Positions 1,388 through 39,322 of a stretch of DNA of 64,000 nucleotides are shown one piece after another (positions within the stretch are counted from its first letter, which is position 1; each line of letters opens with the position of its first letter). The notes beneath the pieces were generated by a model. That model was not told the origin of the DNA, ran no database searches, and worked only from the letters and a program-made list of their open reading frames with translations. Source of the stretch: a bacterium (lineage in GTDB: Bacteria > Zhuqueibacterota > Zhuqueibacteria > Residuimicrobiales > Krinioviventaceae); the NCBI GenBank assembly GCA_963674595.2, contig CAXXFV010000016.1:786426-850425 (forward strand). Reading direction: 5' to 3'. The position numbers were made by a program, and so were the translations under genes.

Positions 1388-2290
1388 ATGATACAAACTA
1401 AATCATCATCCAGAAGAAGTTTTTTAAAATGGTGTTTGTTATCAGGATCAAGCACAATATTGGGAAAATATGTGAATGCCGCTGAATCCCGTACTGATGT
1501 ATGGGTAATTCATGGAAACGATAAAATCCTGTTGATGGATAAATGCCTTGAAATTATTGGAGAAAATGGAGGTTTGGCATCAGGTACAATGGCCCTAAAA
1601 GTCAATGCCGCATGGTCGAGAACGCCTGAGCAGGGCGCTAATACCCATCCGGTTTTGGTTGATCGGTTTCTTCAGGGCGTTAAAAATCTGGGTATAACTG
1701 AAAGTGTATTGCCGGAACATGCTTGTCAGAGGGGAGAACAAACTTTTGAACGCAGTGGTATATTGCAGGTTGCTAAAAAAAACAAAACGGACATGATCGA
1801 TATGCAGCGTGAGCAAGATCATTTTGTTGAGGTGTCGATACCCTCTGCTGTAACTTTAAAACAAGCTCAGGTACCGAAAGAATTAATAGAGGCTGATGTT
1901 ATTGTCAACATGCCGGTTGCTAAGGACCATCGGGCGTCAATATTAACTATTGCCATGAAAAACTGGATGGGCTCGGTTAATGATAGAGGTGTTTTTCATC
2001 GTGAAAATTTACATCAGTGTATAGCAGATATCAGCTCTTTTTTCAAACCTTCATGGACCATAGTTGATGCCACGAGAATAATGATGGATAAAGGACCACA
2101 GGGACCAACATCCAATATGCGTTATCCGAATTTACTTGTTGTTTCCAGAGACCAGGTGGCAGCCGATGTTTTTACTTCTACGCTTTTTTATGATGATCCG
2201 ATGCAAATCGGTTACTTGAATTTGGCCCGTAAAATGAATTTGGGAGAAACAGATTTGAATAAAATGAGCCTGCATCGTATAGAGGCATAA
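1388..2290 (+). CDS. DUF362 domain protein with Tat signal
   Basis: SRRSFLK twin-arginine motif; LKVN, NMPVAKDH, LTIAMKNWMG and DQVAAD motifs typical of DUF362. Confidence 0.85.
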   Translation: MIQTKSSSRRSFLKWCLLSGSSTILGKYVNAAESRTDVWVIHGNDKILLMDKCLEIIGENGGLASGTMALKVNAAWSRTPEQGANTHPVLVDRFLQGVKNLGITESVLPEHACQRGEQTFERSGILQVAKKNKTDMIDMQREQDHFVEVSIPSAVTLKQAQVPKELIEADVIVNMPVAKDHRASILTIAMKNWMGSVNDRGVFHRENLHQCIADISSFFKPSWTIVDATRIMMDKGPQGPTSNMRYPNLLVVSRDQVAADVFTSTLFYDDPMQIGYLNLARKMNLGETDLNKMSLHRIEA

Positions 2291-2291
2291 G

Positions 2292-3488
2292 ATGAAAATA
2301 TTTCGGCGTTCAAGGTTTCCGGTAATCAGGCTTTTTATAATAGTTGTATTTATTTTTTTAACGATCCCTGTTCTTTTCCCTGTCTGGACTGTAAGAATTT
2401 GCCCTTCATCGAGTCCGTTTGTAACATTGTTGGATGTGCTTGCTCCCAGAGAGTGGTTTGTTCCTCAGTTTTGGTTTTTGCCTATGCTGGCGATTCTGGT
2501 TCTCGGACTTTTTAAGGGACGGTTCTTTTGTCGTACTATATGTCCGCTGGGAACGATTTATAAAATATTTTCCAGATGGAGTTTTAAAAAAGTAATATTA
2601 AAAAAGCGACTCAACAGGACTATTTTCTGGTTCACATTTTGGGCGGCTGTTTGTGGAACCCCAATGGTTCTTTTTCTTGATCCTTTATCAACTTTTACCC
2701 GGTTAATGACGGGAATTACCAGTTATCATTTTTGGATTATTTTAATACCCTTGTCTGTATTTGTTTTATTTTTTTTTATTCATTTCATTCAACCAATGAT
2801 GTGGTGCACACACATTTGTCCATTGGGATATTCGTTTGAATCTTCCATACGAATTCGCCAAAATGTATTATTTCAAAATGAGCGCAGGGAAATAATAAAA
2901 GGCTTTGTTCTTGCACTGCCTTCAGCCTTTCTCTTTAATAAAACAGCTTTACCTGATGAGAAAACGCAACATTTACCTGTTTTACCACCTGGTGCGGTCG
3001 ATCAGGCTTCTTTTTCCAATGTGTGTAGTCGCTGTTATGCCTGTGTTAATGTTTGTCCGACTGAGGTTATTCAAATTGGATTTTTTAAACATAGAACCCT
3101 GGGCCAGTTTTTTCAACCGGAACTGGCAACCCGCACCAGTTATTGTGATGAATTTTGCAACAAATGTTCCATTGTATGCCCAACGGGAGCAATTCGGTTT
3201 TTAAGTTTGGAAGATAAAAAGAAACAGCAAATTGGTGTTGCCGTATTGGATAAAGAAAGCTGTTTGGCCTGGGCGGATGATAAATTTTGCATGGTCTGTG
3301 ATGAATACTGCTCCTATCATGCTATTGAATTTGAATATCGGGAGGGACGTATCCCATTACCTTCCGTTAATAAAGATATTTGCAGAGGTTGTGGTAGTTG
3401 TGAATATGCATGTCCGGCAATACGTAATGGAAAAGCTATACATGTTAATGGTGTCTATAAGCAGAGAGTATTAAATAATATAGTTTAA
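2292..3488 (+). CDS. 4Fe-4S membrane protein (NapH/MauN-like membrane part fused to NapG/MauM-like polyferredoxin)
   Basis: TM helices with GRFFCRTICPLG and WCTHICPLG; LPPGA followed by four CxxC..CxxxCP-type clusters. Confidence 0.85.
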   Translation: MKIFRRSRFPVIRLFIIVVFIFLTIPVLFPVWTVRICPSSSPFVTLLDVLAPREWFVPQFWFLPMLAILVLGLFKGRFFCRTICPLGTIYKIFSRWSFKKVILKKRLNRTIFWFTFWAAVCGTPMVLFLDPLSTFTRLMTGITSYHFWIILIPLSVFVLFFFIHFIQPMMWCTHICPLGYSFESSIRIRQNVLFQNERREIIKGFVLALPSAFLFNKTALPDEKTQHLPVLPPGAVDQASFSNVCSRCYACVNVCPTEVIQIGFFKHRTLGQFFQPELATRTSYCDEFCNKCSIVCPTGAIRFLSLEDKKKQQIGVAVLDKESCLAWADDKFCMVCDEYCSYHAIEFEYREGRIPLPSVNKDICRGCGSCEYACPAIRNGKAIHVNGVYKQRVLNNIV

Positions 3489-3496
3489 GGACGACA

Positions 3497-4726
3497 ATGA
3501 GATATAATTATTCCAAAAGTTTGTTGGTAATCTATTTTTTATATGTTGTTACAATGTTTACAGGTATAAGTTGTAGTAAAGAACTTGTTTCCGGGAATGA
3601 CAAAGATGATTTTAATGGCGAGGGAACAGCTATTGCTTTAACAGGTGGAAAAATAATTGATGGGACCGGTAATAGTCGGGTTGAAAACGGTCTTCTACTT
3701 GTTAACGATGGTAAAATTGCATTTGTCGGTTCCGGTGATCAAAAACAAATACCGGAAAGTTTCAGAGTTATTAATGTAAACGGATGTACTGTTCTTCCCG
3801 GTTTTATAAATGCTCATATTCATCATGGTTATAGTGAATCAGATTTGAAAAAATGGGCCTGGAATGGTGTCACAACGGTACGGGATTTAGCGGCAAATGG
3901 TCCAAATACGGATCTAAAGGAATTAATTAAATTCAGAGACAGGGTTAATTCAAATCCAAATTGTGCGCGGTTGGTAAGTGCCGGTTTTATTTTGGCAAAG
4001 AAAAACGGTTATTGTTCTTCGTATTATAACTCTTTCAATTCCCCTAAAGAGGCCCGTCAATTGGTCATTAATGAAATAAATGCAGGAGTGGAAATTATTA
4101 AATTTGCATTAGAGGACGGATATGCAGGTGTTACAAATCTTCCGAATGCGACTGATGAAGAAATGTCGGCAATTGTCAATACAGCCCATGAATATAACAC
4201 CCCTGTTTCCGTGCATATAACAGATTCCAAGTATTTGCAAAAGGTAATCGATCTTGGAGTAGATGATGTTGCCCATATCACGTGGAATGTTGTTGACCCG
4301 GAGATTTATAAAGAAATGGTTGCCAAAAATATTTATATGGTACCGACAGTGACTGTTTTTAATTTTTATGGTTCACCAATAAACAATTGTATTACAAATA
4401 TTCGTAATTTTGTCAACGTTGGCGGCAAAATAGCTCTCGGCAATGATTATGATAACGGTTACCCGGCTGGTTATTTTGAGTTGGGTATCCCCATGTATGA
4501 GGTACAATGTATGAAAGATGCTGATATGACGCCTATGCAGATAATTGAAGCATGTACTAAAAATGCTGCTCATGTATCAAATATTATAAATGAGACAGGT
4601 ACACTGGAACCAGGTAAAGATGCTGATGTTTTAATAATTAATGGCGATCCTTTAAAAAATCTGCAAACATTAAAAGATATAAAAATGGTCATTCACCGAG
4701 GTGTCATCATTCGGGATGAGCTTTAG
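3497..4726 (+). CDS. amidohydrolase-family lipoprotein
   Basis: lipobox-like GISC; PGFINAHIH, GVTTVRD, GND, GTLEPGKDAD motifs. Confidence 0.85.
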   Translation: MRYNYSKSLLVIYFLYVVTMFTGISCSKELVSGNDKDDFNGEGTAIALTGGKIIDGTGNSRVENGLLLVNDGKIAFVGSGDQKQIPESFRVINVNGCTVLPGFINAHIHHGYSESDLKKWAWNGVTTVRDLAANGPNTDLKELIKFRDRVNSNPNCARLVSAGFILAKKNGYCSSYYNSFNSPKEARQLVINEINAGVEIIKFALEDGYAGVTNLPNATDEEMSAIVNTAHEYNTPVSVHITDSKYLQKVIDLGVDDVAHITWNVVDPEIYKEMVAKNIYMVPTVTVFNFYGSPINNCITNIRNFVNVGGKIALGNDYDNGYPAGYFELGIPMYEVQCMKDADMTPMQIIEACTKNAAHVSNIINETGTLEPGKDADVLIINGDPLKNLQTLKDIKMVIHRGVIIRDEL

Positions 4727-7987: not shown

Positions 7988-8599
7988 ATGGAATTAGTAA
8001 AAGCGATAGAAAATAGATCCACAGTACGAAATTTTACAAACGATGCCGTTGATCCTAATGATTTAAAAGAGATGGTGCAATTAGCCGGCCTGGCGCCCAG
8101 TGTTAATAATTCACAACCGTGGAAATTTATAGCTATTACAAATACAGAATTAATTGCAAAAATGGCTGAAACTGTTCATCAAAAAGTCGATCAGATGTTT
8201 CATACTGTTTCAGAAAAAGACGAACAGGTGAAAAATACCATAGATTATTTTTCAACAGTTTTTGAAAAAGCGCCCTCGGTTATTGTTGTTGTTTCAAAGT
8301 CCTATGAGGCTATAGCAGACAAGCTGTTTGACCATGACCAGATTAATAAACTACGGAATTATCCAAATATAGAAAGTATCGGGGCGAGTGTTCAGAATAT
8401 TTTATTAGCTGCAGTGGAAAAGGGTTTGGGCGCTTGTTGGCTAAGTGGATTGATGATTGCGCAACACGAGCTGGAACAGGTATTAGACATTCAGCCCCCC
8501 TGGCAATTGGCCACAGCCATTGCAGTTGGTAAACCCGCTTCAGAAACCGGGAAAAAAACCAAAAAATCTTTGGATGAAATTTTTGAATTACGTGAATAA
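7988..8599 (+). CDS. nitroreductase family protein
   Basis: RSTVRNF, APSVNNSQPW, GLGACW; GGAGG RBS. Confidence 0.9.
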   Translation: MELVKAIENRSTVRNFTNDAVDPNDLKEMVQLAGLAPSVNNSQPWKFIAITNTELIAKMAETVHQKVDQMFHTVSEKDEQVKNTIDYFSTVFEKAPSVIVVVSKSYEAIADKLFDHDQINKLRNYPNIESIGASVQNILLAAVEKGLGACWLSGLMIAQHELEQVLDIQPPWQLATAIAVGKPASETGKKTKKSLDEIFELRE

Positions 8600-8604
8600 T
8601 AAAT

Positions 8605-9102
8605 TCATTCTTTTAAAGAATCCGTTTTTGTTGTGTCTGTCTTTACCAGCTTTAATGCAAGAGAATTTATACAATATCTCAAATTTGTAGGAGCCGGACC
8701 GTCGTTGAAAACATGTCCCAAGTGTGAGCCGCATACACTGCATAAAACCTCGGTCCGCTCCATTGACAGACTTTTATCTTTTTGTTCGTTGACGGTTTTA
8801 TTGGAAATTGGCTCCCAAAAACTCGGCCATCCGCTTCCTGAATCATATTTTGTGTCGGAACTGAACAATGGATTCCCGCATGCTGCACAGGTGTAAACTC
8901 CTTTATCCGTTGTTTTATAATATTTTCCGGTAAAGGCTTGTTCCGTACCCTTTTCACGCAATACACGAAATTGTTCCGGTGACAGGCAGGTTTGCCACTC
9001 TTTATCGCTTTTTATTATTTTTTCCGTTTTAATTGTTGCCTCCTGTGCAAATAAACTATTAAATAATAAAACAGACAAGAAAAAAGCTGCTATTTTCATC
9101 AT
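8605..9102 (-). CDS. msrB: peptide-methionine (R)-S-oxide reductase with signal peptide
   Basis: [29 protein letters not shown]; N-terminal signal peptide. Confidence 0.95.
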
Positions 9103-9163
9103 GATAAATTCCTTTTTTACCTATTTAAACATGAATTCAGCCTGACTTATTTCCCGGCCGGTA

Positions 9164-9487
9164 TCAACCATTTATATTTTTTTCGATTTCTGATTTTAAG
9201 GCATGATATGGCAGGGCGCCGGCAACCCGCATCAACGTTTTCCCTTTATGAAACATCATAATTGTGGGAATACTGCTGATTTGATATTGAGCAGCTACGT
9301 GCTGTTTGTGATCAACATTAACTTTTATCGTTAACAGTTTTCCTTTATACTCCTGTGCAAGTTGTTGAATGACAGGTGATACCATTCGACAGGGACCACA
9401 CCATTCTGCCCAAAAATCGACAAGAACAGGAATATCTGAATTTTGGATCAATTCATTAAAGGATTTTGGTAGTTCATGCTGTGTCAT
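9164..9487 (-). CDS. trxA: thioredoxin
   Basis: DFWAEWCGPC; start moved to the ATG at 9487 behind a GAGG RBS. Confidence 0.93.
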   Translation of the reverse strand: MTQHELPKSFNELIQNSDIPVLVDFWAEWCGPCRMVSPVIQQLAQEYKGKLLTIKVNVDHKQHVAAQYQISSIPTIMMFHKGKTLMRVAGALPYHALKSEIEKNING

Positions 9488-9730
9488 TTTTACCTCTTTA
9501 TAAAGAAAATAATGTTTTACTATTTTCAATATTAGATGCATGAATTATCAAAATGATTAAGAGATTAAATATAATTTTAAAACTTTTGTCGATGTGTTAC
9601 TAAAAAATAATAGTAGTAAAGAGTGAAGCAGGTTTTTGGGGATGGTAAATTATTGTCGATATAGGACTGGTAAAAAATTAATTAGCTGAAATGTCATATT
9701 AAAGAATATGCTGTAATCAGCACTTTTCTG

Positions 9731-10429
9731 TTAAAAAGTTATGCTGATTTTTAATAATGCCGGATTTTGTACATTTTCAACGTTTTTGTATTTATCCTTG
9801 TACAATTCTCCAAAACCGTTACCGATGAGTGTGCCTAATAAGGCTCCGGTCAAAACGTCGGACAACCAATGCTTGTTGTCATAAATTCGCTGATAGCCGG
9901 TTAATGAAGCAATAATATAGGCAGGAATTCCGACCGAGTTGCCGTAGATTTGTTGTAACGTTGCGGCTACCACAAATGACGTCGACGTATGCCCTGATGG
10001 GAAGGAATGATAATCTTGTTTCCCGGGTCTTTGACGGCGACAGATATGTTTTAATACAAAAGTGACTGCAAGGTTTGCTGCATAAGCTTCTCCCATAATT
10101 TTAGCACGGTTCCAGGTTTTACTGCCGTGATAATTATTTGCCCAACTGTCTGTTAGTATGTAACCTTCTGCAATGAAAAAATTACTGCCAAAACCATAAA
10201 TGTCAAAAATTTTGCTGGTTGTATTATTAAGATATTTGTTGGTAAATTTTTCTTTTACAGGATGATCCAGTTTTGACGCCAGGGCAATGCCACCGGCAAA
10301 ACCAAGCCATGCTGGTTTGTCGAAAAAAGCGTTGTTAAATCCGTCTTTAAAATCGTTGGAATAATCTTTGAATGAATCTTGTGAGTATAAACTTCCTGTG
10401 AAAAGTAATAGAATTAATAATTTTTTCAT
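9731..10429 (-). CDS. PAP2-family phosphatase
   Basis: KxxxxxxRP, SFPSGH, RxxxxxHWLSD motifs. Confidence 0.9.
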   Translation of the reverse strand: MKKLLILLLFTGSLYSQDSFKDYSNDFKDGFNNAFFDKPAWLGFAGGIALASKLDHPVKEKFTNKYLNNTTSKIFDIYGFGSNFFIAEGYILTDSWANNYHGSKTWNRAKIMGEAYAANLAVTFVLKHICRRQRPGKQDYHSFPSGHTSTSFVVAATLQQIYGNSVGIPAYIIASLTGYQRIYDNKHWLSDVLTGALLGTLIGNGFGELYKDKYKNVENVQNPALLKISITF

Positions 10430-10474
10430 TCTTACCCGTCTGTTTGAATTTTCCTGTACTGCAAATTTTGTTCG

Positions 10475-11470
10475 TTAATTAATTTTATAAAAAGGTTCAA
10501 TGATCTTGATGGAGGAAAAATGTTCTTTTATCAAGTTGGTGTCTTTTTTCAAGAATAAAAGTTTTACGTTTGGTCCGGCGTCAATAGTTATATATAGATG
10601 GTGCTGTTGTTTTCGAAGTTCCCAGACGTTTTCAATGATTGTCAATGTCTCCGGTTTCCAAAAAAATACCGGTGGCCAGGCCGACAGCATTGTTGCATGC
10701 ATGGAAAAGGCGTTCGTTTCAGCCGTTTGTCCAAAAAGCTCAAAATCTTTTGTTGCAATAGCTTTTTTTAAGGTGGCTAAATCAGTACTGGATTTTTCCG
10801 GCCAGCTTTTATAAAGTAATGATGTTGAAACAGTATGCTGCATCGCTTGCCCGGAGCTTTGTCCTTTTGCCTCACTGCTTACGGTTACGATACCGATACA
10901 TAATTCATTCCATTGCTCAGATATTTGTTCTGCATAACAGTCCATTCCATTTGGATCTTTCCCGGCATGCCATTCCACAAAACCTTCATATATTGACCGG
11001 CTGGCGCTGCCGCTGCCGAGTCTGGCGAGCTGGGAGAGTGTTTTTTTATCCAAATTCCAGTTAAAAAATTTATCAAGAGCAAGAGTTAATGCGGCAAAGC
11101 CGGAAGCGGATGACGCCAAACCTGCGGCTGTCGGTATATTATTTTCTGTTATTACTTTGAAATAAAAATCAGACTTCGGGCGAAATAATGACAGGAAATT
11201 TTTCATCCTGTTATAAAAAGCTGATTCTTTTTCAACAGGATGGTTGTTATGTATAAAAGTGTCACAATCATCTGCCCGGTCAATTTCGGTTTTGCTTCCC
11301 AGGTTTCCCAATGAAACGGACAAGCTGGAATTAACCGGCAGATTCAGTTCAACATCTCTTTTTCCCCAATATTTACATAGAGCAATGTTTGATGGAGCAA
11401 ATGCTTTTGCATTATGAAATTGACCGCTTTTTTCTTTTAATAAAAAATTGACATACTCTTGTCTAGTCAA
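10475..11470 (-). CDS. mvaD: diphosphomevalonate decarboxylase
   Basis: NIALCKYWGK, PTAAGLASSASG, RLGSGSASRS, DAGPN. Confidence 0.95.
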   Translation of the reverse strand: MTRQEYVNFLLKEKSGQFHNAKAFAPSNIALCKYWGKRDVELNLPVNSSLSVSLGNLGSKTEIDRADDCDTFIHNNHPVEKESAFYNRMKNFLSLFRPKSDFYFKVITENNIPTAAGLASSASGFAALTLALDKFFNWNLDKKTLSQLARLGSGSASRSIYEGFVEWHAGKDPNGMDCYAEQISEQWNELCIGIVTVSSEAKGQSSGQAMQHTVSTSLLYKSWPEKSSTDLATLKKAIATKDFELFGQTAETNAFSMHATMLSAWPPVFFWKPETLTIIENVWELRKQQHHLYITIDAGPNVKLLFLKKDTNLIKEHFSSIKIIEPFYKIN

Positions 11471-31717: not shown

Positions 31718-32560
31718 TTATTTTACAGTTGGTTCCGGTGCTTTTGGAATTTTTTCGTTTGCTTTAAATTCCGTAGATTTTGGTAAAATATGAGCTGCTT
31801 TTTTATCCTTTTTAAGTCTGAATGTTTTTTTAATCATATCATTTTTTAATAATTGTATTGCAAAACCCGGATCAACACCTTTGGGGCATACTTCAGAACA
31901 GGCTCCTGCAAAATGGCAGCGCCAAACACCATGTTTTGCATAGACTTGTTTTTCTCTCTCTTTACCTCCCTCATCACGTGAATCAGCGATATATCGCCAG
32001 GCCTGGGCCAAAGCCTGTGGACCTGTATAGTTTTCGTCGGTTGCTACTGTGGGGCAGGCGGACAGACAAAGCCCGCATTTTATGCAATAAGCAAATTGAA
32101 TATAATTTATCAGTTCATCTTGAGATTGAAAATATTCGCCGGTAGGATTTTCAAGCTCTTTCACGTGTTGTCTGATAAGGTAGGGTTTTACGGATTTATG
32201 CTTTTCAAAAAAGCCTTCCAGGTCCGGTACGAGGTCTTTAATTATATTATAATTTGGTAACGGTTTGATCTGGATTTTATCGGCCTTGAGGTGTGCAATC
32301 TGATTATTACAGGCCAATCGAGGGTAACCGTTTATAAACATACCACAGGAACCGCAAACTCCCATTCGGCAGGATGAACGCCAGGCCAGAGTACTGTCTT
32401 TGTTTTCTTTGATCCAATGCAGACCGTCCAGAACCGTCATTCCTTTTGTTACCGGGACCTCAAAAGTTTCCATTCGTGGTGTGTCATCAATTTCCGGATT
32501 ATATCTTAAAATTTCAAATGTTACTGTTTTAAGAATTTTTTCAGTATTTTTCTCAACCAT
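31718..32560 (-). CDS. sdhB: succinate dehydrogenase/fumarate reductase iron-sulfur subunit
   Basis: SCRMGVCGSC..LAC, CIKCGLCLSACP, CHFAGACSEVCP. Confidence 0.95.
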   Translation of the reverse strand: MVEKNTEKILKTVTFEILRYNPEIDDTPRMETFEVPVTKGMTVLDGLHWIKENKDSTLAWRSSCRMGVCGSCGMFINGYPRLACNNQIAHLKADKIQIKPLPNYNIIKDLVPDLEGFFEKHKSVKPYLIRQHVKELENPTGEYFQSQDELINYIQFAYCIKCGLCLSACPTVATDENYTGPQALAQAWRYIADSRDEGGKEREKQVYAKHGVWRCHFAGACSEVCPKGVDPGFAIQLLKNDMIKKTFRLKKDKKAAHILPKSTEFKANEKIPKAPEPTVK

Positions 32561-32592
32561 GATTGTCTCCTTTTTACAGAAATACAGGCGGT

Positions 32593-32964
32593 CTATTGAA
32601 CAGGCTGAAGAAATACAAAAATTGCAGCATAGGCGCCATAAATAAATAATAATAATCCAAATAAAACCAAAAGCCAGCTTGTCACTTTTTCCAATGTTGC
32701 TGATATTTTTAACTCGAATATAATATTTTTCAAACCATACAAGCCGTGATAAAGGGCTGTACCCAGTAAAAGTATATACGTTATCATAAAGAAAAATTGT
32801 TTACTTCTTAAAAACACGGATTCAGCCTGAACCGGATTTTGATAACCGATCCCCAAAAAGACTAAAATTGCATCATAATGCATAATAAACATGTGCAGAC
32901 CAAGCAGAAAGAATATTAAAATCCCTGCAAAGATGTGCAGTACCCAAAGTGTTGATTCACGCAT
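32593..32964 (-). CDS. sdhD: succinate dehydrogenase membrane anchor subunit
   Basis: three TM helices with His ligands (GLH, LYHGLYG); operon context. Confidence 0.8.
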   Translation of the reverse strand: MRESTLWVLHIFAGILIFFLLGLHMFIMHYDAILVFLGIGYQNPVQAESVFLRSKQFFFMITYILLLGTALYHGLYGLKNIIFELKISATLEKVTSWLLVLFGLLLFIYGAYAAIFVFLQPVQ

Positions 32965-32974
32965 GTTAATTCTC

Positions 32975-33418
32975 CTAATTTCCTAGTAAATAAAAATCAA
33001 TTCCGCCAAAAAGCATAATAATAGCTGCAATGATCATTATTACAACAAAAAACGGGCGCTGTCTTTGAACAGCGTTTTTATAAGGGAAAACAGGGCGCTG
33101 CGGTTTACCCAGCATGTATCCGGATTCTGTTATCACGAGCCGCAAACCGTTTAGTGCATGGAAAGCAAAAGCCAGAAAGACCAAAAATTCACCAAATTTT
33201 GAAAGTTGTGTTTCAAAAGTATGCATGATGTGTGTCCATGACTCAGGCCCACCGATTCGTGAACCTGTAACAAAAATATGCAAGATAAAGTAGAGCAATA
33301 AACCGAGTCCGGTAATTCTGTGTAATGTAAAGGCATATCGCTCAAGGCCGTATCTTCCTCCGGAGATCCAACCCCAGAGACCCAGCTTGTTTTTATAGTG
33401 TTTAATCTCGTTATTCAT
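32975..33418 (-). CDS. sdhC: succinate dehydrogenase cytochrome b subunit
   Basis: LHRITG, FHALNGLR motifs; three TM. Confidence 0.88.
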   Translation of the reverse strand: MNNEIKHYKNKLGLWGWISGGRYGLERYAFTLHRITGLGLLLYFILHIFVTGSRIGGPESWTHIMHTFETQLSKFGEFLVFLAFAFHALNGLRLVITESGYMLGKPQRPVFPYKNAVQRQRPFFVVIMIIAAIIMLFGGIDFYLLGN

Positions 33419-33431
33419 TTTTCACTCCTGC

Positions 33432-35150
33432 TTAATATTTTCTTTCCACTGGTTTCCAGGTTGTAATATTTACAGGTTTATAATCAAACACAGGTTCGCC
33501 TTCCTTAAAGAAAGCGAGTGTATGTTTGAGCCATTTATTATCGTCACGCACTGTAAAATCACGACGGGCGTGTGCCCCGCGGGATTCTTCTCTCTTTAAA
33601 CCACCTGTAACCATAACCTGGGCAAGCTCAAGCAAATTGGACACTTCCAGTGCATGAATGAGGTTGGTGTTATAGGTTCGGCTTTTGTCATCGATATGGA
33701 TGTTTTCAAATCGTTTTTTAAGGGATTTTATAATGTCCAGTGCTTTTCCCATATCTTCACCTGTACGGTAAACGCCAACATAGGTATCCATGCAGGATCG
33801 CAGGTCACGACGAATATCATAAATACTTTCCGTACCTTTTTTATCCAGCAGATCAGAAAAGATACGTTTGTTTTCCATATCAATGGTTTCTTGAGGAACA
33901 TCCGGATAGTTTGTAATTTCTTTGCAATATTTTCCTGCTTCTACGCCTGTTATTTTACCCCATACCAGGCATTCTGCGGTAGAGTTGGAACCCAGACGGT
34001 TGGCGCCATGCAGGCTGACACAGGCCGCCTCACCGGCTGCCCAAATACCTTTTGCGCGTGTTGCACCATTAATATCAGTCTCAATTCCGCCCATAGAATA
34101 ATGGGCAACAGGGCGGCAGGGGATGGGCTCTTCTATCGGATCAAGATCATTAAATTCCATACATACTTCACGGATAAGCGGCAGCCGGTCATTAATGCGG
34201 TCCGCACCAAGATGTCTCAGATCAAGATGGATATAATTCAGGCCATTCGGACCGTCAAAACCTCTCCCAGCTTCAATTTCCGTAATTTCAGAACGGGATA
34301 TCAGGTCTCGCGGCGCCAGTTCCAATTTTTCCGGCGCGTATTTTTCCATAAATCGTTCACCTTTATTATTTAAAAGGTAACCTCCTTCACCACGGCAGGC
34401 TTCGGTTATAAGAATGCCTGATGGAACCAGACCGGTTGGGTGAAACTGAACAAATTCCATGTCCTCCAACGGTAACCCGGCCCGATAGGCCATTGCCAGA
34501 CCATCACCGGTAACGGTTTGGGAATAGGTGGTAAATCCATACAATGTACCGCTGCCGCCGGTGGCTATAATAAGCGCTTTTCCTCGAATGAATTTAAATT
34601 TGCCTGTTGTCATACTCATTGCTGTAAGGCCTTTAAATTCATTGTTTTTGATAACAATAGAGGTTATGTACCATTCGTTATAGTGTACGGCATTGTTGTA
34701 TTTTAAGAGTGTGTCATACAGGGTTTGCAGTTCGAAAAAACCGGTTTTGTCTGCCGCCAGTACGGCACGCGGATAACTGTGTCCGCCAAATGGTCTTTGG
34801 GCGATTCGTCCGTCTTCTCGGCGGGTCCAGGGTATTCCCCAATGGTCTAACTGCAGAATTTCATCGGGCATAGCCTTTACAAATCGGTCAATAACATCCT
34901 GGTCTGCCAAAAAGTCACTTCCTTTTACAGTGTCCCAGGCATGGAGTTCAAAACTATCTCCATCATCCGGCCGAAGCATGGCCGCCGTTCCGCCTTCTGC
35001 GGCGACTGAATGAGCGCGCATCATTTGATTTTTGGTGAAAATTCCGATATCAATATCACCATTGGTCTGACGAGACGCTTCTACAGCCGCTCGAATTCCT
35101 GCCAGTCCTGCACCTAAAATAATGAGTTCATGCGTTATGACATCAGACAT
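33432..35150 (-). CDS. sdhA: succinate dehydrogenase/fumarate reductase flavoprotein
   Basis: GAGLAG, RAHSVAAEGG (FAD His), QFHPTG, HYSMGG, HGANRLG, ESRGAH. Confidence 0.97.
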   Translation of the reverse strand: MSDVITHELIILGAGLAGIRAAVEASRQTNGDIDIGIFTKNQMMRAHSVAAEGGTAAMLRPDDGDSFELHAWDTVKGSDFLADQDVIDRFVKAMPDEILQLDHWGIPWTRREDGRIAQRPFGGHSYPRAVLAADKTGFFELQTLYDTLLKYNNAVHYNEWYITSIVIKNNEFKGLTAMSMTTGKFKFIRGKALIIATGGSGTLYGFTTYSQTVTGDGLAMAYRAGLPLEDMEFVQFHPTGLVPSGILITEACRGEGGYLLNNKGERFMEKYAPEKLELAPRDLISRSEITEIEAGRGFDGPNGLNYIHLDLRHLGADRINDRLPLIREVCMEFNDLDPIEEPIPCRPVAHYSMGGIETDINGATRAKGIWAAGEAACVSLHGANRLGSNSTAECLVWGKITGVEAGKYCKEITNYPDVPQETIDMENKRIFSDLLDKKGTESIYDIRRDLRSCMDTYVGVYRTGEDMGKALDIIKSLKKRFENIHIDDKSRTYNTNLIHALEVSNLLELAQVMVTGGLKREESRGAHARRDFTVRDDNKWLKHTLAFFKEGEPVFDYKPVNITTWKPVERKY

Positions 35151-35163
35151 AAAGGGCCTCCAC

Positions 35164-35316
35164 TTAGAGCAGATAAAATGTTGATGGGTGTTTTAATTGT
35201 ATTGATTTAGTGAATGTATGCTGAGTGTAGTTATATTTGCGGATAGGATGTTTTTGCAGCATATTATTTTTCTGCAATATTTGTTTTGAAGAGATTGATG
35301 ACTTTATAATTATCAT
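35164..35316 (-). CDS. putative 50-aa leader ORF upstream of sdhA
   Basis: ATG at 35316 with GAGGGG 6 nt upstream, open to TAA at 35164; not in the ORF track (<60 aa). Confidence 0.35.
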   Translation of the reverse strand: MIIIKSSISSKQILQKNNMLQKHPIRKYNYTQHTFTKSIQLKHPSTFYLL

Positions 35317-35342
35317 TGTTATCCCCTCATGGTTTTTATTTT

Positions 35343-35371
35343 AAGATATAACACAATTAATAGGATGTCAA
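35343..35371 (-). promoter_or_regulatory. sigma70-type promoter for the sdh operon
   Basis: TTGACA-N17-TATCTT. Confidence 0.55.
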
Positions 35372-35434
35372 GGGAAAAAACAATTTTATTGTTAGCGTTA
35401 TTGTAGTATGTTGGCATTTTGCATTTGTTTTTTC

Positions 35435-35463
35435 TTGATTATTGATCAAGCGTTTGGTATACT
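35435..35463 (+). promoter_or_regulatory. sigma70-type promoter for the nucleotidyltransferase gene
   Basis: TTGATT-N17-TATACT with extended TG. Confidence 0.55.
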
Positions 35464-35492
35464 TGTTTTAGGTTGATATTATTGAGGTCAAT

Positions 35493-38477
35493 ATGGATGT
35501 TTATTTAGACAGGTTAAAATCACGTTCTGAGGTACTTGGGAACCATTACTATAAATATATTAATTTTATTGATACCAATCTTGATAAATTTATGGGGCGC
35601 CTTGAAAAAGAGGGTGTGATTGAGCGCGTTCATTTATGGGTTACGGCTCACGATTACAAGCAGGAAATGAGTACAATTTTCCAGGTCGGCACCACATTGA
35701 ATGAAAAGTTGACGGATTTGGGATGTTATTTTGCTTTTCAATTTTTGCAGATGAACCTGTCTGCTCTTGATGCTTTAATGCTGGAAGTGACAACAAATCC
35801 TGACAAACATTCGGTCTATAAAAGGTTCATGCTTAGGGTTGGTCACGATTTTCGCAGGTTAACCGCAGCATATATGAAACATTTAATGGCTCTGTTTTTA
35901 CCGGAAGATTATAAACATCAATTTGTGTTTATGGGTGTCGGCACAAGGTCTGATCAGGATGATATTGATATTGGTGTTATTGACCAGGACCCGAACGATC
36001 GTGATATATTAAACAAGGCCATTGGTAAAATGAGCGGGGAAATGTTAAAGCGCGCTATTTGTTTACATTTTCATCTATCAGAACATGTCGGCAGTGTAAC
36101 GTCTTATTCCGCCTCTATTGATGAATACCTTGAATTGTTAAACAAGGAAATACATGATTTTGTTATTATAACAGAGATGCTGGGTGGTGCGAGAATATTA
36201 GGAAGTAGAAGTCTGTTTTTTGAGTTTCGTCGTAAAGTCGGGTTGAGATATTATAACACATCCAGTATTTACAGGGATGCACGATTTCATGAAGGTTATT
36301 TGCGGGGTATTTTGGGAGAAACACGTTCGTTCATTTTGCGCGAATTGTCACGTGATCGTATCAGTCCCAAAGGTGACGGCCTGCGTATGATAAAGGCTGG
36401 TTTGTTTGCCGCTAAAACAATTTTTAACCTTCGTCAGGTCAATGCATGGGCCATTTTGGGTGAGCTTAAAATTCATGACAAATCCAGAATACATTTTTAT
36501 GAGCAGCTCGAAAGTTCACTAACATTTTTGGAAATTTTTCGCTATTTATATCAGTTGCTTGTAGCCCAGGAGGAAGAAATATTTATTAATGATAAAACAA
36601 GTATAAATCATTTATCAATTGTTGCCGAATCAATGGGCTTTAAATCCGTTGGTGTTGCAAATGCCACCGAATTTTTAATAACTGAGTATTATAAAAATAT
36701 TCAAATTGCTAAAGAAACAATGAGCCAGCTTTTACCAGGCTCTGAGAGTCATTTACAATCCATATCTGTTCTGGGCAAAATATTACGCCATAAAAAAGCA
36801 ACAACCGGAAAAGAAAAGAGAATTGGTAATTTAGCCATACGGTTTTTGGGTGAAACCCGGTTTTTTCGCGGGACCCGTTTTTGGGATGACATTATAAATG
36901 TTTTTGAATATAAAGATGCACAAATTTTAAAACGTTTGATAAATGATCTGTGTTCACTATCCGAAGAAAAAAGAATGGAGGTTTTGCAGGGGTATATTGA
37001 CTGGGGGTGGAATACATTTATTGCAACATTTTCATTTATTATTTTATTGTATAAACATCGTAAAAGTCTTCGAGATTGTGATATTTATAAAAAATTTAAC
37101 GAATTATTTTTCGAGCGTGTACGGGGAACAGAAGAGGAAGCCCAGCGGTTAAGTATTGTTTTTACTCATTATCCCCGATTGGTTTATGAATATACGAGTT
37201 TGCTGACCGAATCACAGCAGCGAAAGTTTTTTTCATGGCTGGATAGTAATGTCTGGGACCCTGAGGTTTTGCCGGCACGTGACAGGCTGCGTTTTTTACT
37301 AAAGCTGCAATATGCAACCAGTAAATACTTTAAAAGAGTTATGAATAATGTCATTAATGAAAATCCGGAATATCTGCATTTTATAAATAATGTAGATCGC
37401 TTGAGTTTGATCGGTAAAGGTATGCTGGCGGAAGTTGAACGGACTAAAGTAACCAAATTAAAGTTCAACAGCTTGAAAACTTTTTATAATTTTCAGTTTT
37501 TTAAAGTTGGAATTGAAACCCTGTTGGGTACACCCTCTCAAACAGTAGCTTTACATTTTTCAGAGTTTGCCGATACTTATTTACGTCTGTTATTCGATAC
37601 ATCAAAACAAGAAATAGATGAACTTTACAGCCATACATTACAAACCAAGGACCTTTTGGGTGTTTTTGTCACCGGGGGCCGGGGACAAATGCTGGCCTTT
37701 GATGATGATTTTGATTTGATTATTCTTATAAACTCGGACGATCCTATTGTGCACAGGTATTGCTGTACCATAATAAGCCGAATGCATAAAGAACTGGTAA
37801 AAAGCGGTGTGTTGCCCCATTATCGTCTGGCTGAATATACGGGTTCTTATCTTTGTACTTTTAACGAACTCGCGCAATTGTTGGGTGATAATGATCCGGA
37901 AAGATTTATTGACAGAGCACAGATTTTGGGCGCCAGGATGGTCATCGGCAGCAGCATTTTGCAACATGATTTTGAGAAGCAAATTGTAAAGCCTTATATT
38001 TTAGCCAGGAAAAAGGATTTTGTTTTAGATATTTTAAAGGATATGGATGCAAGACATCTGTCTTTAACGAATTGTTTTGACGGCTGTATTAATCTAAAAG
38101 AGGATCCCGGTGGAATAAGAGATATTGACATGATTTTGCTTATTTGCAGGGCACTTTTTGAAATATTTGAACCGTCATCTTTTAAAATATTACTACGCCT
38201 TCAGATTATGATCCATTCTCATTCAAAAGAGTTTCAAAAATTATTTAAATCTTACCAAAAGTTAAGGTATATACGTGATTTAAACCGGCTCTCTTTGGCC
38301 GCAACGGATTGCCTTGGCAAGGATAACACCCATTATTTATCGGATAATATGAGTTTTCGGATTGCAGAACGGGATGAAGATGTGTATGAAGAGGTTTCCA
38401 GGACATTTAAATCTGTCCTGAAAACCAATATAAAAATTATTAAAGAAGTAATTATGCCAAATATTGAGCTCTTTTAA
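35493..38477 (+). CDS. large protein with two nucleotidyltransferase modules (GlnE/GlnD/DUF294-like)
   Basis: GVGTRSDQDDIDIG plus PKGDGLRMI (module 1); TGGRGQMLAFDDDFDL plus NLKEDPGGIRDID (module 2). Confidence 0.7.
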   Translation: MDVYLDRLKSRSEVLGNHYYKYINFIDTNLDKFMGRLEKEGVIERVHLWVTAHDYKQEMSTIFQVGTTLNEKLTDLGCYFAFQFLQMNLSALDALMLEVTTNPDKHSVYKRFMLRVGHDFRRLTAAYMKHLMALFLPEDYKHQFVFMGVGTRSDQDDIDIGVIDQDPNDRDILNKAIGKMSGEMLKRAICLHFHLSEHVGSVTSYSASIDEYLELLNKEIHDFVIITEMLGGARILGSRSLFFEFRRKVGLRYYNTSSIYRDARFHEGYLRGILGETRSFILRELSRDRISPKGDGLRMIKAGLFAAKTIFNLRQVNAWAILGELKIHDKSRIHFYEQLESSLTFLEIFRYLYQLLVAQEEEIFINDKTSINHLSIVAESMGFKSVGVANATEFLITEYYKNIQIAKETMSQLLPGSESHLQSISVLGKILRHKKATTGKEKRIGNLAIRFLGETRFFRGTRFWDDIINVFEYKDAQILKRLINDLCSLSEEKRMEVLQGYIDWGWNTFIATFSFIILLYKHRKSLRDCDIYKKFNELFFERVRGTEEEAQRLSIVFTHYPRLVYEYTSLLTESQQRKFFSWLDSNVWDPEVLPARDRLRFLLKLQYATSKYFKRVMNNVINENPEYLHFINNVDRLSLIGKGMLAEVERTKVTKLKFNSLKTFYNFQFFKVGIETLLGTPSQTVALHFSEFADTYLRLLFDTSKQEIDELYSHTLQTKDLLGVFVTGGRGQMLAFDDDFDLIILINSDDPIVHRYCCTIISRMHKELVKSGVLPHYRLAEYTGSYLCTFNELAQLLGDNDPERFIDRAQILGARMVIGSSILQHDFEKQIVKPYILARKKDFVLDILKDMDARHLSLTNCFDGCINLKEDPGGIRDIDMILLICRALFEIFEPSSFKILLRLQIMIHSHSKEFQKLFKSYQKLRYIRDLNRLSLAATDCLGKDNTHYLSDNMSFRIAERDEDVYEEVSRTFKSVLKTNIKIIKEVIMPNIELF

Positions 38478-39283
38478 AAAGAGTATGATATGGTTGCCAT
38501 AAAACCAGCAACTTTGATGCGGGGTTCAACTTCTTTTTCGTCTATGATTACCGGCTCATCATATTGTTCTGAAAATAAATCTGCCCTGTAACCGGCATTA
38601 ATGCCTAATCCGGATGGGAAACGATAACCCAAACCTACATTTAAAGCTACAAGCACGGCTGAAATATCATTTTCAGAATCATCTTCAGAGGATGTTTTAC
38701 TTAATGATGAGTCATCTTCTTTTTCTTCATAAGTTAACGTACCGCCCATTCCGGCCAGGGAACCAAAAGCATAAAGACCGGAATTTCCAAGCGGTAGGAC
38801 GAGAGATAATCCAAGACCGTACATTGGTCCGCTTTCGCTTATTTCATACTTGTAGGAGTAATCATAATATTCATTCTTGTACTCCATGTCCATGGACCAT
38901 TTAAGATATTTGACGCCGGCAAATATGTTTACGTTTCTATGAATACGATATCCGAGGGTAAAATTGACATCCGTGCGACCCATATCGGCTTCGACACCGG
39001 TGCCTTCAAGACTATATCCACCGTATTCATTAATAGGAAATTTACCTACAAGAACTGAGAGACCAAAATTAACCTTGCCGTGGTTAACACTCATGTAAGG
39101 ACCAAAATTGTTTCCTGAACCAATGTCCCCTAATTTCTCTCCGTCCTGATCTTCCATGGTATAGGCGGCATTCCACCAGCTACCGCCCAGAGTGACAATT
39201 GTCCTTGTCTGGGCAAAAAGTGAAGAACTAACGAAAATAACCAGGATCAGTAAAACAAAACAAATTTTTTCGACTTTCTGCAT
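38474..39283 (-). CDS. outer-membrane beta-barrel protein
   Basis: signal peptide, alternating aromatic beta strands, C-terminal ISYSF; start at ATG 39283 behind GGAGG. Confidence 0.8.
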   Translation of the reverse strand: MQKVEKICFVLLILVIFVSSSLFAQTRTIVTLGGSWWNAAYTMEDQDGEKLGDIGSGNNFGPYMSVNHGKVNFGLSVLVGKFPINEYGGYSLEGTGVEADMGRTDVNFTLGYRIHRNVNIFAGVKYLKWSMDMEYKNEYYDYSYKYEISESGPMYGLGLSLVLPLGNSGLYAFGSLAGMGGTLTYEEKEDDSSLSKTSSEDDSENDISAVLVALNVGLGYRFPSGLGINAGYRADLFSEQYDEPVIIDEKEVEPRIKVAGFMATISYSF

Positions 39284-39322
39284 TGTTACCTCCAAAGAGT
39301 TATTTATTTGCTGTTTATTTGT

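Follow-up and report, generated by a model that had tools for sequence, protein, structure and literature searches.

A divergent nucleotidyltransferase family with the two-module GlnE layout is linked to korABG and may act on a 2-oxoacid:ferredoxin oxidoreductase

An open reading frame of 994 codons plus stop, P0001 (positions 35493..38477, forward strand), in the 64,000-nucleotide stretch of bacterial DNA analysed here (the window), encodes a two-module GlnE-like nucleotidyltransferase. The family to which the protein belongs is undescribed and distinct from canonical GlnE and GlnD, and the conserved genomic partner of this family is korA-korB-korG, encoding a three-subunit 2-oxoacid:ferredoxin oxidoreductase (Kor). 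Regulation by adenylylation was first exemplified by GlnE, and the P0001 family is a second family with the GlnE layout, both catalytic centres being conserved. In the excerpted text of PMC12409994, glutamine synthetase (GS) is the sole target described for the bifunctional two-module GlnE layout. For the P0001 family, operon structure, co-occurrence and a predicted interface point to covalent on/off control of a ferredoxin-dependent 2-oxoacid oxidoreductase; in anaerobes, such control would bear on a key step of the TCA cycle in both its oxidative and its reductive form. If this is true, a TCA or reductive-TCA enzyme would for the first time be found under a GlnE-style covalent switch, and carbon flux at 2-oxoglutarate would be coupled to a metabolic signal without PII.

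The sequence-only reading had placed a dual nucleotidyltransferase (NTase) with two pol-beta-type DxD modules at this position; the observation was confirmed, P0001 being a single ORF with two homologous NTase modules, and the four motif strings singled out in that reading, given below, are all present in the translation. P0001 is covered to 94-100% by its full-length homologues (960-1040 aa), and the whole-chain AF2 model has a pLDDT of 90.4 and a pTM of 0.80. Module 1 (residues 1-424; 35493..36764) consists of a helical lead-in, an NTase core and a helical PF08335-like domain. It is followed by a central helical linker (residues 425-570; 36765..37202), which contains a low-confidence loop at residues 434-443 and found only generic helical-repeat matches (Z 6-7) in the fold search, and by module 2 (residues 571-994; 37203..38474), a GlnE-like NTase plus PF08335 domain; all three segments lie on the forward strand.

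The GlnE domains were the best fold match for both modules (Z 25-35, with 345-420 residues aligned). Module 1, folded alone (pLDDT 89.1), matched the GlnE N-terminal domain 1v4a first (Z 25.7, rmsd 3.8, 363 residues aligned), then the GlnE C-terminal domain 3k7d (Z 25.1) and DrrA 6yx5 (Z 22.4), after which the next match dropped to Z 10.9. By structure, module 2 is nearer the N domain of GlnE (1v4a, Z 34.6, 391 residues aligned, rmsd 3.8) than the C domain (3k7d, Z 31.1), with DrrA at Z 24.4; in a profile search of the PDB, 3k7d was matched at E 1e-6 and 1v4a at E 2.4e-6. Each module thus has the GlnE domain fold with conserved catalytic aspartates.

The catalytic motif of module 1, GVGTRSDQDDID (residues 148-159; 35934..35969, forward strand), has a shortened G-loop, as had been noted earlier: in the alignment it is 4 residues shorter than that of module 2. 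Over the 61 sequences of the conservation set, whose members range down to 18% identity to P0001, residues G150, D154, D157, D159, E197 and K293 are at least 90% conserved and G237 is invariant. The motif PKGDGLRMI (residues 292-300; 36366..36392, forward strand) is the counterpart of the K...GG.R motif of module 2, aligning with K869...R876, and its K293 and R298 are invariant among 20 N-terminal sequences. In module 2 the catalytic motif GGRGQMLAFDDDFD (residues 728-741; 37674..37715, forward strand) and the motif NLKEDPGGIRDID (residues 867-879; 38091..38129, forward strand), the latter with an aligned equivalent in each of the two GlnE domains of E. coli, were examined over the same 61 sequences; G728, D741, K869 and G873 are invariant, and G729, D739, G874 and R876 are at least 90% conserved. 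The G-X11-D-X-D catalytic motif is quoted for the GlnE-type class in the excerpt of PMC12409994, and the G-to-DxD spacing of P0001 is shorter in both modules (G728-X10-D739 in module 2, G150-X6-D157 in module 1).

It could be argued from the shortened loop of module 1, where GT replaces the usual GG or GS, that the protein is a mere scaffold in which one module, or both, has no catalytic activity. This is highly improbable, given that in both modules at least 90% conservation holds for the DxD, for the third acidic residue and for the K...R motif, down to 18% identity. The two halves also aligned directly with each other in hhalign (probability 99.9, E 3.1e-34, 373 columns of the 61-sequence family alignment), which paired D157/D159 with D739/D741, E197 with E781 and K293 with K869.

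The sole Pfam match on P0001 is to PF08335 (residues 862-979, E 1.8e-12). The reported absence of HD, ACT and CBS domains was borne out, none being found by Pfam at E <= 1, and the same search and threshold gave no match to PF03710 or PF03445. DUF294 (PF03445), to which module 1 had been likened earlier, is a member of the same superfamily, and its proteins usually carry CBS and cNMP domains in addition; cNMP domains, like CBS domains, are absent from P0001. Two homologues, P0058 and P0080, do carry a precomputed PF03445 match, and the one true DUF294 protein of the genome is located on another contig (C12).

With a pol-beta-type NTase core, a PF08335-type helical domain and conserved carboxylates, P0001 falls in the GlnE/GlnD/DrrA structural class. 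The sequence-only reading of a divergent two-module enzyme resembling GlnE and GlnD is supported in this respect, both catalytic centres being conserved. GlnE (1v4a, 3k7d) resembles P0001 in its length of about 950-1000 aa, in its two homologous NTase-plus-helical modules joined by a linker, and in the common DxD and K...GG.R motifs. It differs in that it carries PF03710 plus PF08335 twice, its NTase being recognised by PF03710, whereas P0001 lacks this match and reaches a profile E to GlnE of only 1e-6. P0001 is not a bona fide GlnE because it has no PF03710 match and its genome has no type-I GS; PF03710 found no match in the whole genome of the window, while control genomes were detected.

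Profile comparisons of the separate modules bear on how the layout arose. In GlnE, the N module is the removing domain and the C module the transferring one. The N half of the P0001 family matched the N module of GlnE at E 6.9e-11 and the C module at E 2.6e-9, while the C half matched the C module at E 2.1e-24 and the N module at E 4e-21. Within-protein comparisons of N to C gave E 3.1e-34 for the P0001 family and E 1.8e-78 for GlnE, versus 2.1e-24 to 2.6e-9 across families. Since the modules of each family resemble each other more than they do those of the other family, these alignments suggest that the modules of GlnE and of the P0001 family were duplicated independently; for the same reason, writer and eraser roles are not assignable by orthology.

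GlnD likewise combines an NTase with a PF08335 domain, but it has one NTase module, an HD domain that removes UMP, and ACT domains. P0001 contains neither HD nor ACT, and its second NTase module occupies the position of the HD domain of GlnD. Against the GlnD models of NCBIfam it scored 29-46 bits, far from cut-offs of 519-1299. The N-terminal AMPylation domain of DrrA/SidM from Legionella has the same fold as both P0001 modules; the secreted effector that contains it has only this one module, directed at a host GTPase, and no eraser module. DrrA shows that proteins other than GS and PII can also be targets of a GlnE-type fold.

The family is small: a search of 1.84 billion proteins at E <= 1e-3 retrieved only 204 representatives, almost all of them about 1000 aa long. 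A search of the ESM Atlas returned just the family's own clusters, plus others, below 0.9, that bear GlnE or DUF294. Neither a curated family nor a paper covering the P0001 family was found, and a literature search of main texts gave no paper on nucleotidylylation of a ferredoxin oxidoreductase; in the excerpted text of the KSB1 survey PMC9012183, sulfate adenylyltransferase is the only mention. Within the phylum of the window the family was detected in 56 of 167 genomes, in taxonomic families f1-f6 and f11-f13. PF03710 was found at cut-off in 23 of the 167, all of them in f9 and f14-f18, and in none from the nine families that bear the P0001 family, so that the two distributions are complementary.

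This complementarity could be taken to mean that P0001 is a very diverged GlnE controlling GS of type I or III, with the kor linkage reflecting 2-oxoglutarate supply for nitrogen assimilation. The two-module length and layout are those of GlnE, and some GS is present in every genome examined. Moreover, according to the excerpted text of bioRxiv 10.64898/2026.09.02.748916, GlnE of one species works without unmodified PII and senses glutamine directly. We nevertheless consider control of GS decidedly unlikely. The earlier proposal to look for a canonical glnE and an adenylylatable GS tyrosine was followed up in the genome of the window, and neither was found: its only GS is of type III, with no more than a weak match to TIGR00653 (E 1.1e-11). 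Type-III GS is in turn missing from family-positive f6 and f11 genomes, from 13 of 14 in f12 and from 4 of 5 in f13. In all four of the f11 and f12 genomes examined, the best type-I GS has a Phe at the column of the adenylylated tyrosine (Tyr397 in E. coli numbering). No GS was detected beside the gene in 119 loci, the GS protein used as a tblastn query being GSIII, whereas canonical glnE of the phylum is often found no more than a few kb from glnA, for example on contigs G142:C5, G064:C306 and G008:C6. The P0001 family is linked to korABG rather than to glnA, and, unlike GlnE, it occurs without type-I GS and without PII.

Modification of PII by a GlnD-like enzyme is extremely unlikely. The weak NCBIfam matches do point to GlnD models, the genome of the window has two PII genes, and no canonical GlnD domain match was found elsewhere in it. 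Against this, PF00543 was not found in seven family-positive genomes that are 90-95% complete (G099, G100, G101, G109, G110, G112 and G114), the HD and ACT domains of GlnD are missing from P0001, and PII is adjacent in 0 of 119 loci. The window itself contains no GS or PII gene, in agreement with the earlier note; the sole GS-like gene of the genome and both PII genes are located on contig C15, while the window belongs to C16.

The local neighbour of the P0001 gene is the sdhA-sdhC-sdhD-sdhB operon (31718..35150, reverse strand), the first gene of which, sdhA (33432-35150, reverse strand), is divergent from P0001 across an intergenic region of 342 bp (35151..35492). The fumAB and PEPCK genes adjoin the sdh genes. 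Scans of positions 35000-38800 found promoter-like sites at chance level (16 versus 15.7 expected) and one terminator-like site (2.6 expected). On the strength of this arrangement, succinate dehydrogenase, fumarase or PEPCK had been proposed as the target, and conservation of the sdh linkage as a check. Of 11 loci sampled from the same order, 7 show the divergent sdhA, as do 7 of 67 assessable metagenome loci, but it was seen in none of 9 loci from other families of the phylum and none of 19 assessable Myxococcota loci. In a FastTree phylogeny of 119 members, for which supports are SH-like only, all sdh contexts fall in one derived clade of 23 rows (support 100). Within this clade the gene stays in place where sdh has been lost (L036, L040, L041 and L043), the divergent arrangement involves no co-transcription, and the genomes retain kor and co-vary with it. 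Nucleotidylylation of the adjacent sdh, fumarase or PEPCK products is therefore very improbable, and the neighbour seen in a single window can mislead as to the real partner of a family. The idea of a nucleotidylating writer/eraser with a target other than GS, directed at the TCA cycle, survives with a different target, because the conserved partner is korABG rather than sdh.

The normal position of the family gene is directly downstream of korG. In a metagenome sample of 79 loci, which was retrieved by WOR-3-type patterns and includes some identical rows, 49 of the 67 assessable loci have a korG-like gene immediately upstream in the same orientation, comprising 32 with a full korABG, 9 with korG only and 8 in which the upstream sequence is cut. 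The gaps between korG and the gene are often 28-150 bp. At most loci kor was called by tblastn with the proteins of one operon (E <= 1e-8, at least 40% coverage), which does not fix the type of substrate. The order korABG, family gene, folE2-ndk-ackA was observed in 7 of 20 sampled loci of the phylum, and a kor context occurs in all deep non-Myxococcota branches of the 119-member tree. By sequence, the enzyme appears closest to 2-oxoglutarate enzymes: its alpha subunit scored 565-572 bits (cut-off 411) with NF006412, while beta and gamma fell just below the cut-offs of their best models, NF007207 (2-oxoglutarate) and NF006323 (generic 2-oxoacid), respectively.

Co-occurrence follows the same pattern. 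In f1, the taxonomic family of the window, korA of this kor type is present in all 10 genomes with the gene and in none of the 9 without it; across the phylum the corresponding numbers are 51 of 56 family-positive and 53 of 111 family-negative genomes. In the genome of the window a korA-korB-korG-ndk operon is located on contig C30, away from the P0001 gene; it carries no P0001-family gene and has the same layout as in family-negative genomes. In this lineage, the gene has moved beside sdh, while the korABG-ndk operon has stayed elsewhere. It counts against Kor as the target that the gene in the window is itself not beside kor, that the same kor type occurs without the gene in those 53 family-negative genomes, and that the gene context in Myxococcota differs. 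Kor is also present without the gene in three family-negative f4 genomes, and family-positive G114 lacks kor.

A complex of P0001 residues 425-994 with KorG from its own genome was modelled with scores of 0.79, 0.80 and 0.79, versus 0.00 for the best of 3 controls. In the benchmark for this score, 58 of 80 solved complexes attained the mark, as did 2 of 110 mismatched pairs; these counts apply only roughly to the KorG model, for which custom alignments were used. The runs agreed in at least 91% of contacts, with a partner pLDDT of 88. The predicted interface comprises residues 738-739, 758-786 (including E781), 850-857 and 934-948 of P0001 and residues 19-47, 61-66 and 155-163 of KorG, and the model thereby places the catalytic loop of module 2 at the KorG surface. 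To our knowledge, no such complex has been solved. The gamma subunit (domain III, the CoA-binding part of Kor) was modelled in isolation, and assembly of the full enzyme might bury the predicted interface. The KorG side of the interface showed no hydroxyl residue that is invariant. At position 64, the Tyr gives way to Phe, Cys or Ser in 3 of 27 aligned KorG sequences, a fourth has it one position off, and Tyr or Phe is also seen here in KorG of genomes that lack the P0001 family.

Genes of nucleotide metabolism are recurrent near the family (ndk, folE2, pgeF and UDPGP, with a pyrophosphatase in L079), and at several loci a small NTase-like ORF with a weak DUF6036 match is found between korG and the gene.

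We judge the chances to be about even that P0001 is a GlnE-style writer/eraser acting on the Kor enzyme. In the mechanism proposed, P0001 would dock on KorG via the active site of module 2, and an NMP would be moved from an NTP onto a hydroxyl side chain on or near conserved loops of the gamma subunit. The other module would take the NMP off again, as GlnE does on GS, and flux through the TCA cycle at its 2-oxoacid/2-oxoglutarate node would thereby be controlled reversibly. The more specific statement, that a two-module writer/eraser reversibly nucleotidylylates the gamma subunit of 2-oxoglutarate:ferredoxin oxidoreductase independently of PII in several mostly uncultured phyla (KSB1, Calditrichia, WOR-3, Cloacimonadota, Eisenbacteria, Fidelibacterota, Tectomicrobia and possibly Myxococcota), is put forward tentatively and is on balance doubtful. 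Binding to Kor could also serve another chemistry, such as one-time attachment of a nucleotide-derived group or action on a small molecule or CoA, or P0001 could be an assembly or sensor subunit. Both the kor linkage and the predicted KorG binding are silent on chemistry, and the missing invariant acceptor residue, the nearby nucleotide-metabolism genes and the small NTase-like ORF would all be compatible with this explanation. We regard it as unlikely, since two conserved active sites fit a forward and a reverse reaction, and GlnE, GlnD and DrrA, all three of the characterised relatives by fold, nucleotidylylate tyrosines of proteins. Nucleotidylylation by GlnE and DrrA is described in the excerpt of PMC12409994. 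The hypothesis of a covalent switch on Kor is directly testable, since it specifies the partners, the catalytic residues and a predicted interface.

Gene contexts other than the typical one were also observed. In the Myxococcota clade, pgeF precedes the gene by at most 600 bp at 14 of 19 assessable loci and by at most 2.1 kb at another 4, and a UDPGP-family gene lies downstream in 5 of 8 scanned loci. In the five Myxococcota genomes that were tested, all oxidoreductase alpha subunits were of the fused type and scored below the NF006412 cut-off. In favour of the Kor reading, further TCA-cycle genes recur near family members: the gene order is aconitase-isocitrate dehydrogenase-korG-family gene in L159, fumAB-korABG lies about 4 kb upstream of the family gene in L117 and L154, a malic enzyme gene is found downstream of it in L130, and aconitase is encoded nearby in L036 and L040.

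The gene is a single ORF of 994 residues on the forward strand of the window (35493-38477), and the two-module organization proposed in the sequence-only reading was confirmed, all four of its motif strings being present in the translation (residues 148-159, 292-300, 728-741 and 867-879). Upstream and divergent lie sdhA, sdhC, sdhD and sdhB on the reverse strand (35150 down to 31718), followed beyond sdhB by fumB, fumA and a GTP-type PEPCK gene. The 123-residue ORF placed as sdhD in this run (32593-32964) has no Pfam or NCBIfam match. On the downstream side, an outer-membrane beta-barrel gene (38474-39295, reverse strand) is convergent with the GlnE-like gene and overlaps its stop codon by four bases (38474-38477); a CsgG/TolB-like lipoprotein gene comes next. 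Because its neighbors are divergent upstream and convergent downstream, the GlnE-like gene forms its own transcription unit in the window.

The sole Pfam match of the ORF was PF08335 (GlnD_UR_UTase; residues 862-979, E 1.8e-12). HD, ACT and CBS domains, the absence of which had been noted earlier, were likewise missing from the Pfam search (E ≤ 1), as were PF03710 and PF03445, and NCBIfam returned only weak GlnD matches (29-46 bits, with cut-offs of 519-1299). In an alignment of 61 full-length relatives (A1; identity down to 18%), residues G237, G728, D741, K869 and G873 were invariant, and G150, D154, D157, D159, E197, K293, G729, D739, G874 and R876 were at least 90% conserved. The N-terminal and C-terminal halves matched one another in hhalign (probability 99.9, E 3.1e-34, 373 columns), with D157/D159 paired with D739/D741, E197 with E781 and K293 with K869; the loop of module 1, described before as shortened, is indeed four residues shorter than that of module 2.

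The AF2 model of the ORF (pLDDT 90.4, pTM 0.80) retrieved three structures in Foldseek, namely the C-terminal domain of E. coli GlnE (3k7d, E 2.9e-9), the GlnE N-terminal domain (1v4a, E 8.1e-9, TM 0.75 on the target) and DrrA (E 9.8e-5), and nothing else below E 1e-3. In VIA-align, module 2 (residues 571-984) was matched to 1v4a with Z 34.6 (391 residues aligned, rmsd 3.8) and to 3k7d with Z 31.1. Module 1, folded separately (pLDDT 89.1), gave Z 25.7 with 1v4a, 25.1 with 3k7d and 22.4 with DrrA, the next match being at Z 10.9. The family profile also matched the GlnE structures by sequence (E 1e-6 and 2.4e-6). The two modules are thus real homologues, and both look active.

The gene belongs to a family of its own, which is neither GlnE nor GlnD. 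A HMMER search of 1.84 billion representative sequences detected 204 family proteins (E ≤ 1e-3), nearly all of ∼1000 residues, and a word-indexed search detected 93, mainly unnamed or "hypothetical"; the named sources were candidate division KSB1, Calditrichia, WOR-3, Cloacimonadota, Eisenbacteria, Tectomicrobia, Fidelibacterota and Myxococcota. Within the phylum, the family occurred in 56 of 167 genomes, all in taxonomic families f1-f6 or f11-f13, and canonical GlnE (PF03710 at cut-off) in 23 of 167, all in f9 or f14-f18 and none in the nine families bearing the GlnE-like gene. Outside those nine, the weak matches of alignment A1 correspond to canonical genes for GlnE and GlnD. The genome that contains the window, which is 97.6% complete, gave no PF03710 match, and its single PF08335 match is the GlnE-like gene. 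When compared module by module with GlnE of the same phylum, the two halves of each protein matched one another best (E 1.8e-78 for GlnE, 3.1e-34 for the family), and all four cross-family comparisons were weaker (E 2.1e-24 to 2.6e-9). Such results suggest that the modules of each protein arose by a separate duplication or have long co-evolved with one another, and the writer and eraser roles of GlnE are therefore not transferable by orthology. The window's genome encodes one true DUF294 (PF03445) protein (locus L005, G000:C12:7486-10893, E 1e-46; open frame ∼800-960 residues), a separate member of the same nucleotidyltransferase superfamily.

Genomic context was analyzed at 20 loci drawn from the 56 family-positive genomes of the phylum, one per genus where contigs allowed. 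A divergent sdhA was observed in seven, every one of them among the 11 loci sampled from the window's order. In another seven, all from f11-f13, korA-korB-korG (korABG), encoding the subunits of a 2-oxoacid:ferredoxin oxidoreductase (Kor), immediately preceded the gene in the same orientation, in the order korABG, GlnE-like gene, folE2, ndk, ackA. The other six contained an ECF sigma gene plus aconitase, ATP-type PEPCK, HdrA or fumarase genes nearby. A metagenome scan with the WOR-3-type sub-alignment provided 79 further loci, from the best 80 of 153 matches; 12 had too little upstream sequence, leaving 67 assessable, and the rows are not independent, since some are identical copies (e.g., L119 and L138, or L044 and L185). 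Among these 67, again from the best 80 of 153 matches, 49 had a korG-like gene as the nearest upstream neighbor in the same orientation (32 with full korABG, nine with korG alone and eight ended by a contig edge) and seven had a divergent sdhA; the context differed in 11, with korABG 4-6 kb upstream in three and downstream in one. In a FastTree phylogeny of 119 members, the kor context appeared in all deep branches other than Myxococcota, and all 15 sdh cases fell within one 23-row clade (support 100) that includes the window. The conserved partner of the GlnE-like gene is thus kor, and the sdh link is local. Of the earlier proposal of a writer/eraser enzyme acting on a neighbor such as SDH, fumarase or PEPCK, a writer/eraser role outside the glutamine synthetase (GS) system is supported by homology; SDH as its target is unsupported, its linkage being confined to that clade.

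The Kor alpha subunit was identified by NCBIfam as a 2-oxoacid:acceptor oxidoreductase alpha subunit (565-572 bits, cut-off 411). Since beta fell just under the 2-oxoglutarate model NF007207 (347-355 bits versus 364) and gamma just under the generic 2-oxoacid model NF006323 (217-223 versus 235), the substrate of Kor is only probable.

Several variants of the kor arrangement were observed. In at least 12 metagenome loci, korG and the GlnE-like gene are separated by an ORF of ∼244-267 residues, among others L125:7270-8004, L119:2869-3672, L133:5488-6222, L124:7269-7997, L140:7252-7983 and L117:7253-7999; its match to DUF6036, a functionally uncharacterized family of nucleotidyltransferases, is weak (E 3e-5 at best), and it may represent a third nucleotidyltransferase-type component of the cluster. 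A lone korG-like gene directly preceded the GlnE-like gene in L144, L146, L147, L152, L157 and L164, as well as in L149, L159 and L183, and six of these nine loci carried a second, more distant, divergent korABG plus HdrA cluster. The adjacent lone KorG was 43-48% identical to that of the window's genome, versus 35-37% for the korG product of the divergent operon. On a single metagenome contig, L168, two GlnE-like copies (1733-4507 and 7999-10812) flank one korABG operon. In L047, and also in L160, an HdrA2-like gene appears as two adjacent same-strand ORFs (in L047, 5669-6265 and 6281-8113, covering model positions 1-192 and 199-775), which may reflect either selenocysteine encoded by an in-frame stop codon or a break.

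The co-occurrence of the two systems was consistent with this linkage. The alpha-subunit model NF006412 scored above cut-off in 31 of 43 genomes of the window's order. In the window's family (f1), korA was present in all 10 gene-positive and in none of the nine gene-negative genomes. In f4, kor was found in three gene-negative genomes, of which two are just 70% and 86% complete; of the gene-positive genomes, G114 had no kor and two others had only kor fragments at contig ends. Across the phylum, korA was detected in 51 of 56 gene-positive versus 53 of 111 gene-negative genomes, counts that come from related, non-independent genomes and do not amount to a statistical test; the phylum tallies include two unpublished genomes (G158 and G162), on neither of which alone any claim depends. 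The gene nearly always occurs with kor, and kor often without the gene, as expected of an accessory regulator. In the window's genome, contig C30 carries korA-korB-korG-ndk-yceD, with a korG-ndk gap of 53 bp, and of the 11 kor loci that could be assessed in gene-negative genomes, five share the korABG-ndk order. The normal place of the gene is thus the korG/ndk junction, and in the window's clade it has relocated to the sdh region.

The established targets of such enzymes, GS and PII, were a poor fit, given their absences, the state of the modification site and the lack of adjacency. Type-I GS (TIGR00653) was absent from the window's genome, G081-G087 and G101, all carriers of the family; the sole GS of the window's genome is type III, on contig C15 together with two PII genes. 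Type-III GS was in turn present in 0 of 4, 0 of 2, 1 of 14 and 1 of 5 genomes of f6, f11, f12 and f13, respectively, all of them taxonomic families that bear the GlnE-like gene. In an alignment of 21 type-I sequences (one further row, a wrong ORF, was ignored), the best GS of all four f11/f12 genomes examined carried Phe where the adenylylated Tyr (Tyr397 in E. coli numbering) aligns; Tyr was found there in genomes with canonical GlnE, plus three with neither GlnE nor the family. PII (PF00543) was not found in seven family-positive genomes of 90-95% completeness (G099-G101, G109, G110, G112 and G114), and no type-III GS or PII gene adjoined the GlnE-like gene at any of 119 loci examined. The absence of PII from several such genomes of the window's order is in itself unusual for free-living bacteria. 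The type-III GS of the window's genome (L002, G000:C15:238010-241462, ORF 784-2589) has an open frame of 601-604 residues versus ∼730-780 in its relatives, and may be truncated, frameshifted or split.

Binding of the GlnE-like protein to KorG was predicted from a model that pairs its residues 425-994 (alignment A1) with the KorG encoded in the window's genome (alignment A4, 27 rows), the latter taken without its partner subunits. The three runs scored 0.79, 0.80 and 0.79, versus 0.00 for the best of three controls; 58 of 80 complexes of solved structure reached the score mark, as did 2 of 110 mismatched pairs, counts that are approximate here as custom alignments were used. The runs shared at least 91% of contacts, with a partner pLDDT of 88. 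The predicted interface comprises residues 738-739 (D739, which opens the module-2 DxD motif, plus its neighbor), 758-786 (including E781), 850-857 and 934-948 of the GlnE-like protein, and residues 19-47, 61-66 and 155-163 of KorG, the first of these ranges overlapping an invariant stretch (S41, G43, P44, E45, A46, R47 and G48). Assembly of the enzyme may cover this KorG surface. The KorG hydroxyl candidates at the predicted interface are T37, S39, S41, Y42 and Y64, but no invariant hydroxyl is conspicuous; in 3 of the 27 sequences Phe, Cys or Ser replaces Tyr64, which is displaced by one position in a fourth. We know of no solved complex of a GlnE-like enzyme with a Kor-type subunit.

The best-supported model, drawing on the observed fold, conservation, operon linkage and co-occurrence, is GlnE-style reversible nucleotidylylation of Kor, most likely exerted through KorG, to which the enzyme is predicted to bind. 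Transfer of an NMP, the nucleotide, the acceptor residue, the signal and a division of labor between the modules are parts of the model that we infer. Our literature searches turned up no paper that describes the family or the control of Kor-type enzymes by nucleotidylylation; supplementary files, which lie outside such searches, may carry annotations.

The Myxococcota clade (20 loci from metagenome-assembled genomes, L076-L095) has a context different from kor, with the order rluD, pgeF, GlnE-like gene. The pgeF gene was upstream within 600 bp in 14 of the 20 and within 2.1 kb in four more; one of the remaining loci had neither and one was not assessable. A UDPGP-family gene was located downstream in five of eight loci scanned, and start and stop codons within this cluster often overlap. 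Five Myxococcota genomes contained only longer alpha-subunit genes, with open frames of 590-703 residues that score below the NF006412 cut-off and are probably of the fused type.
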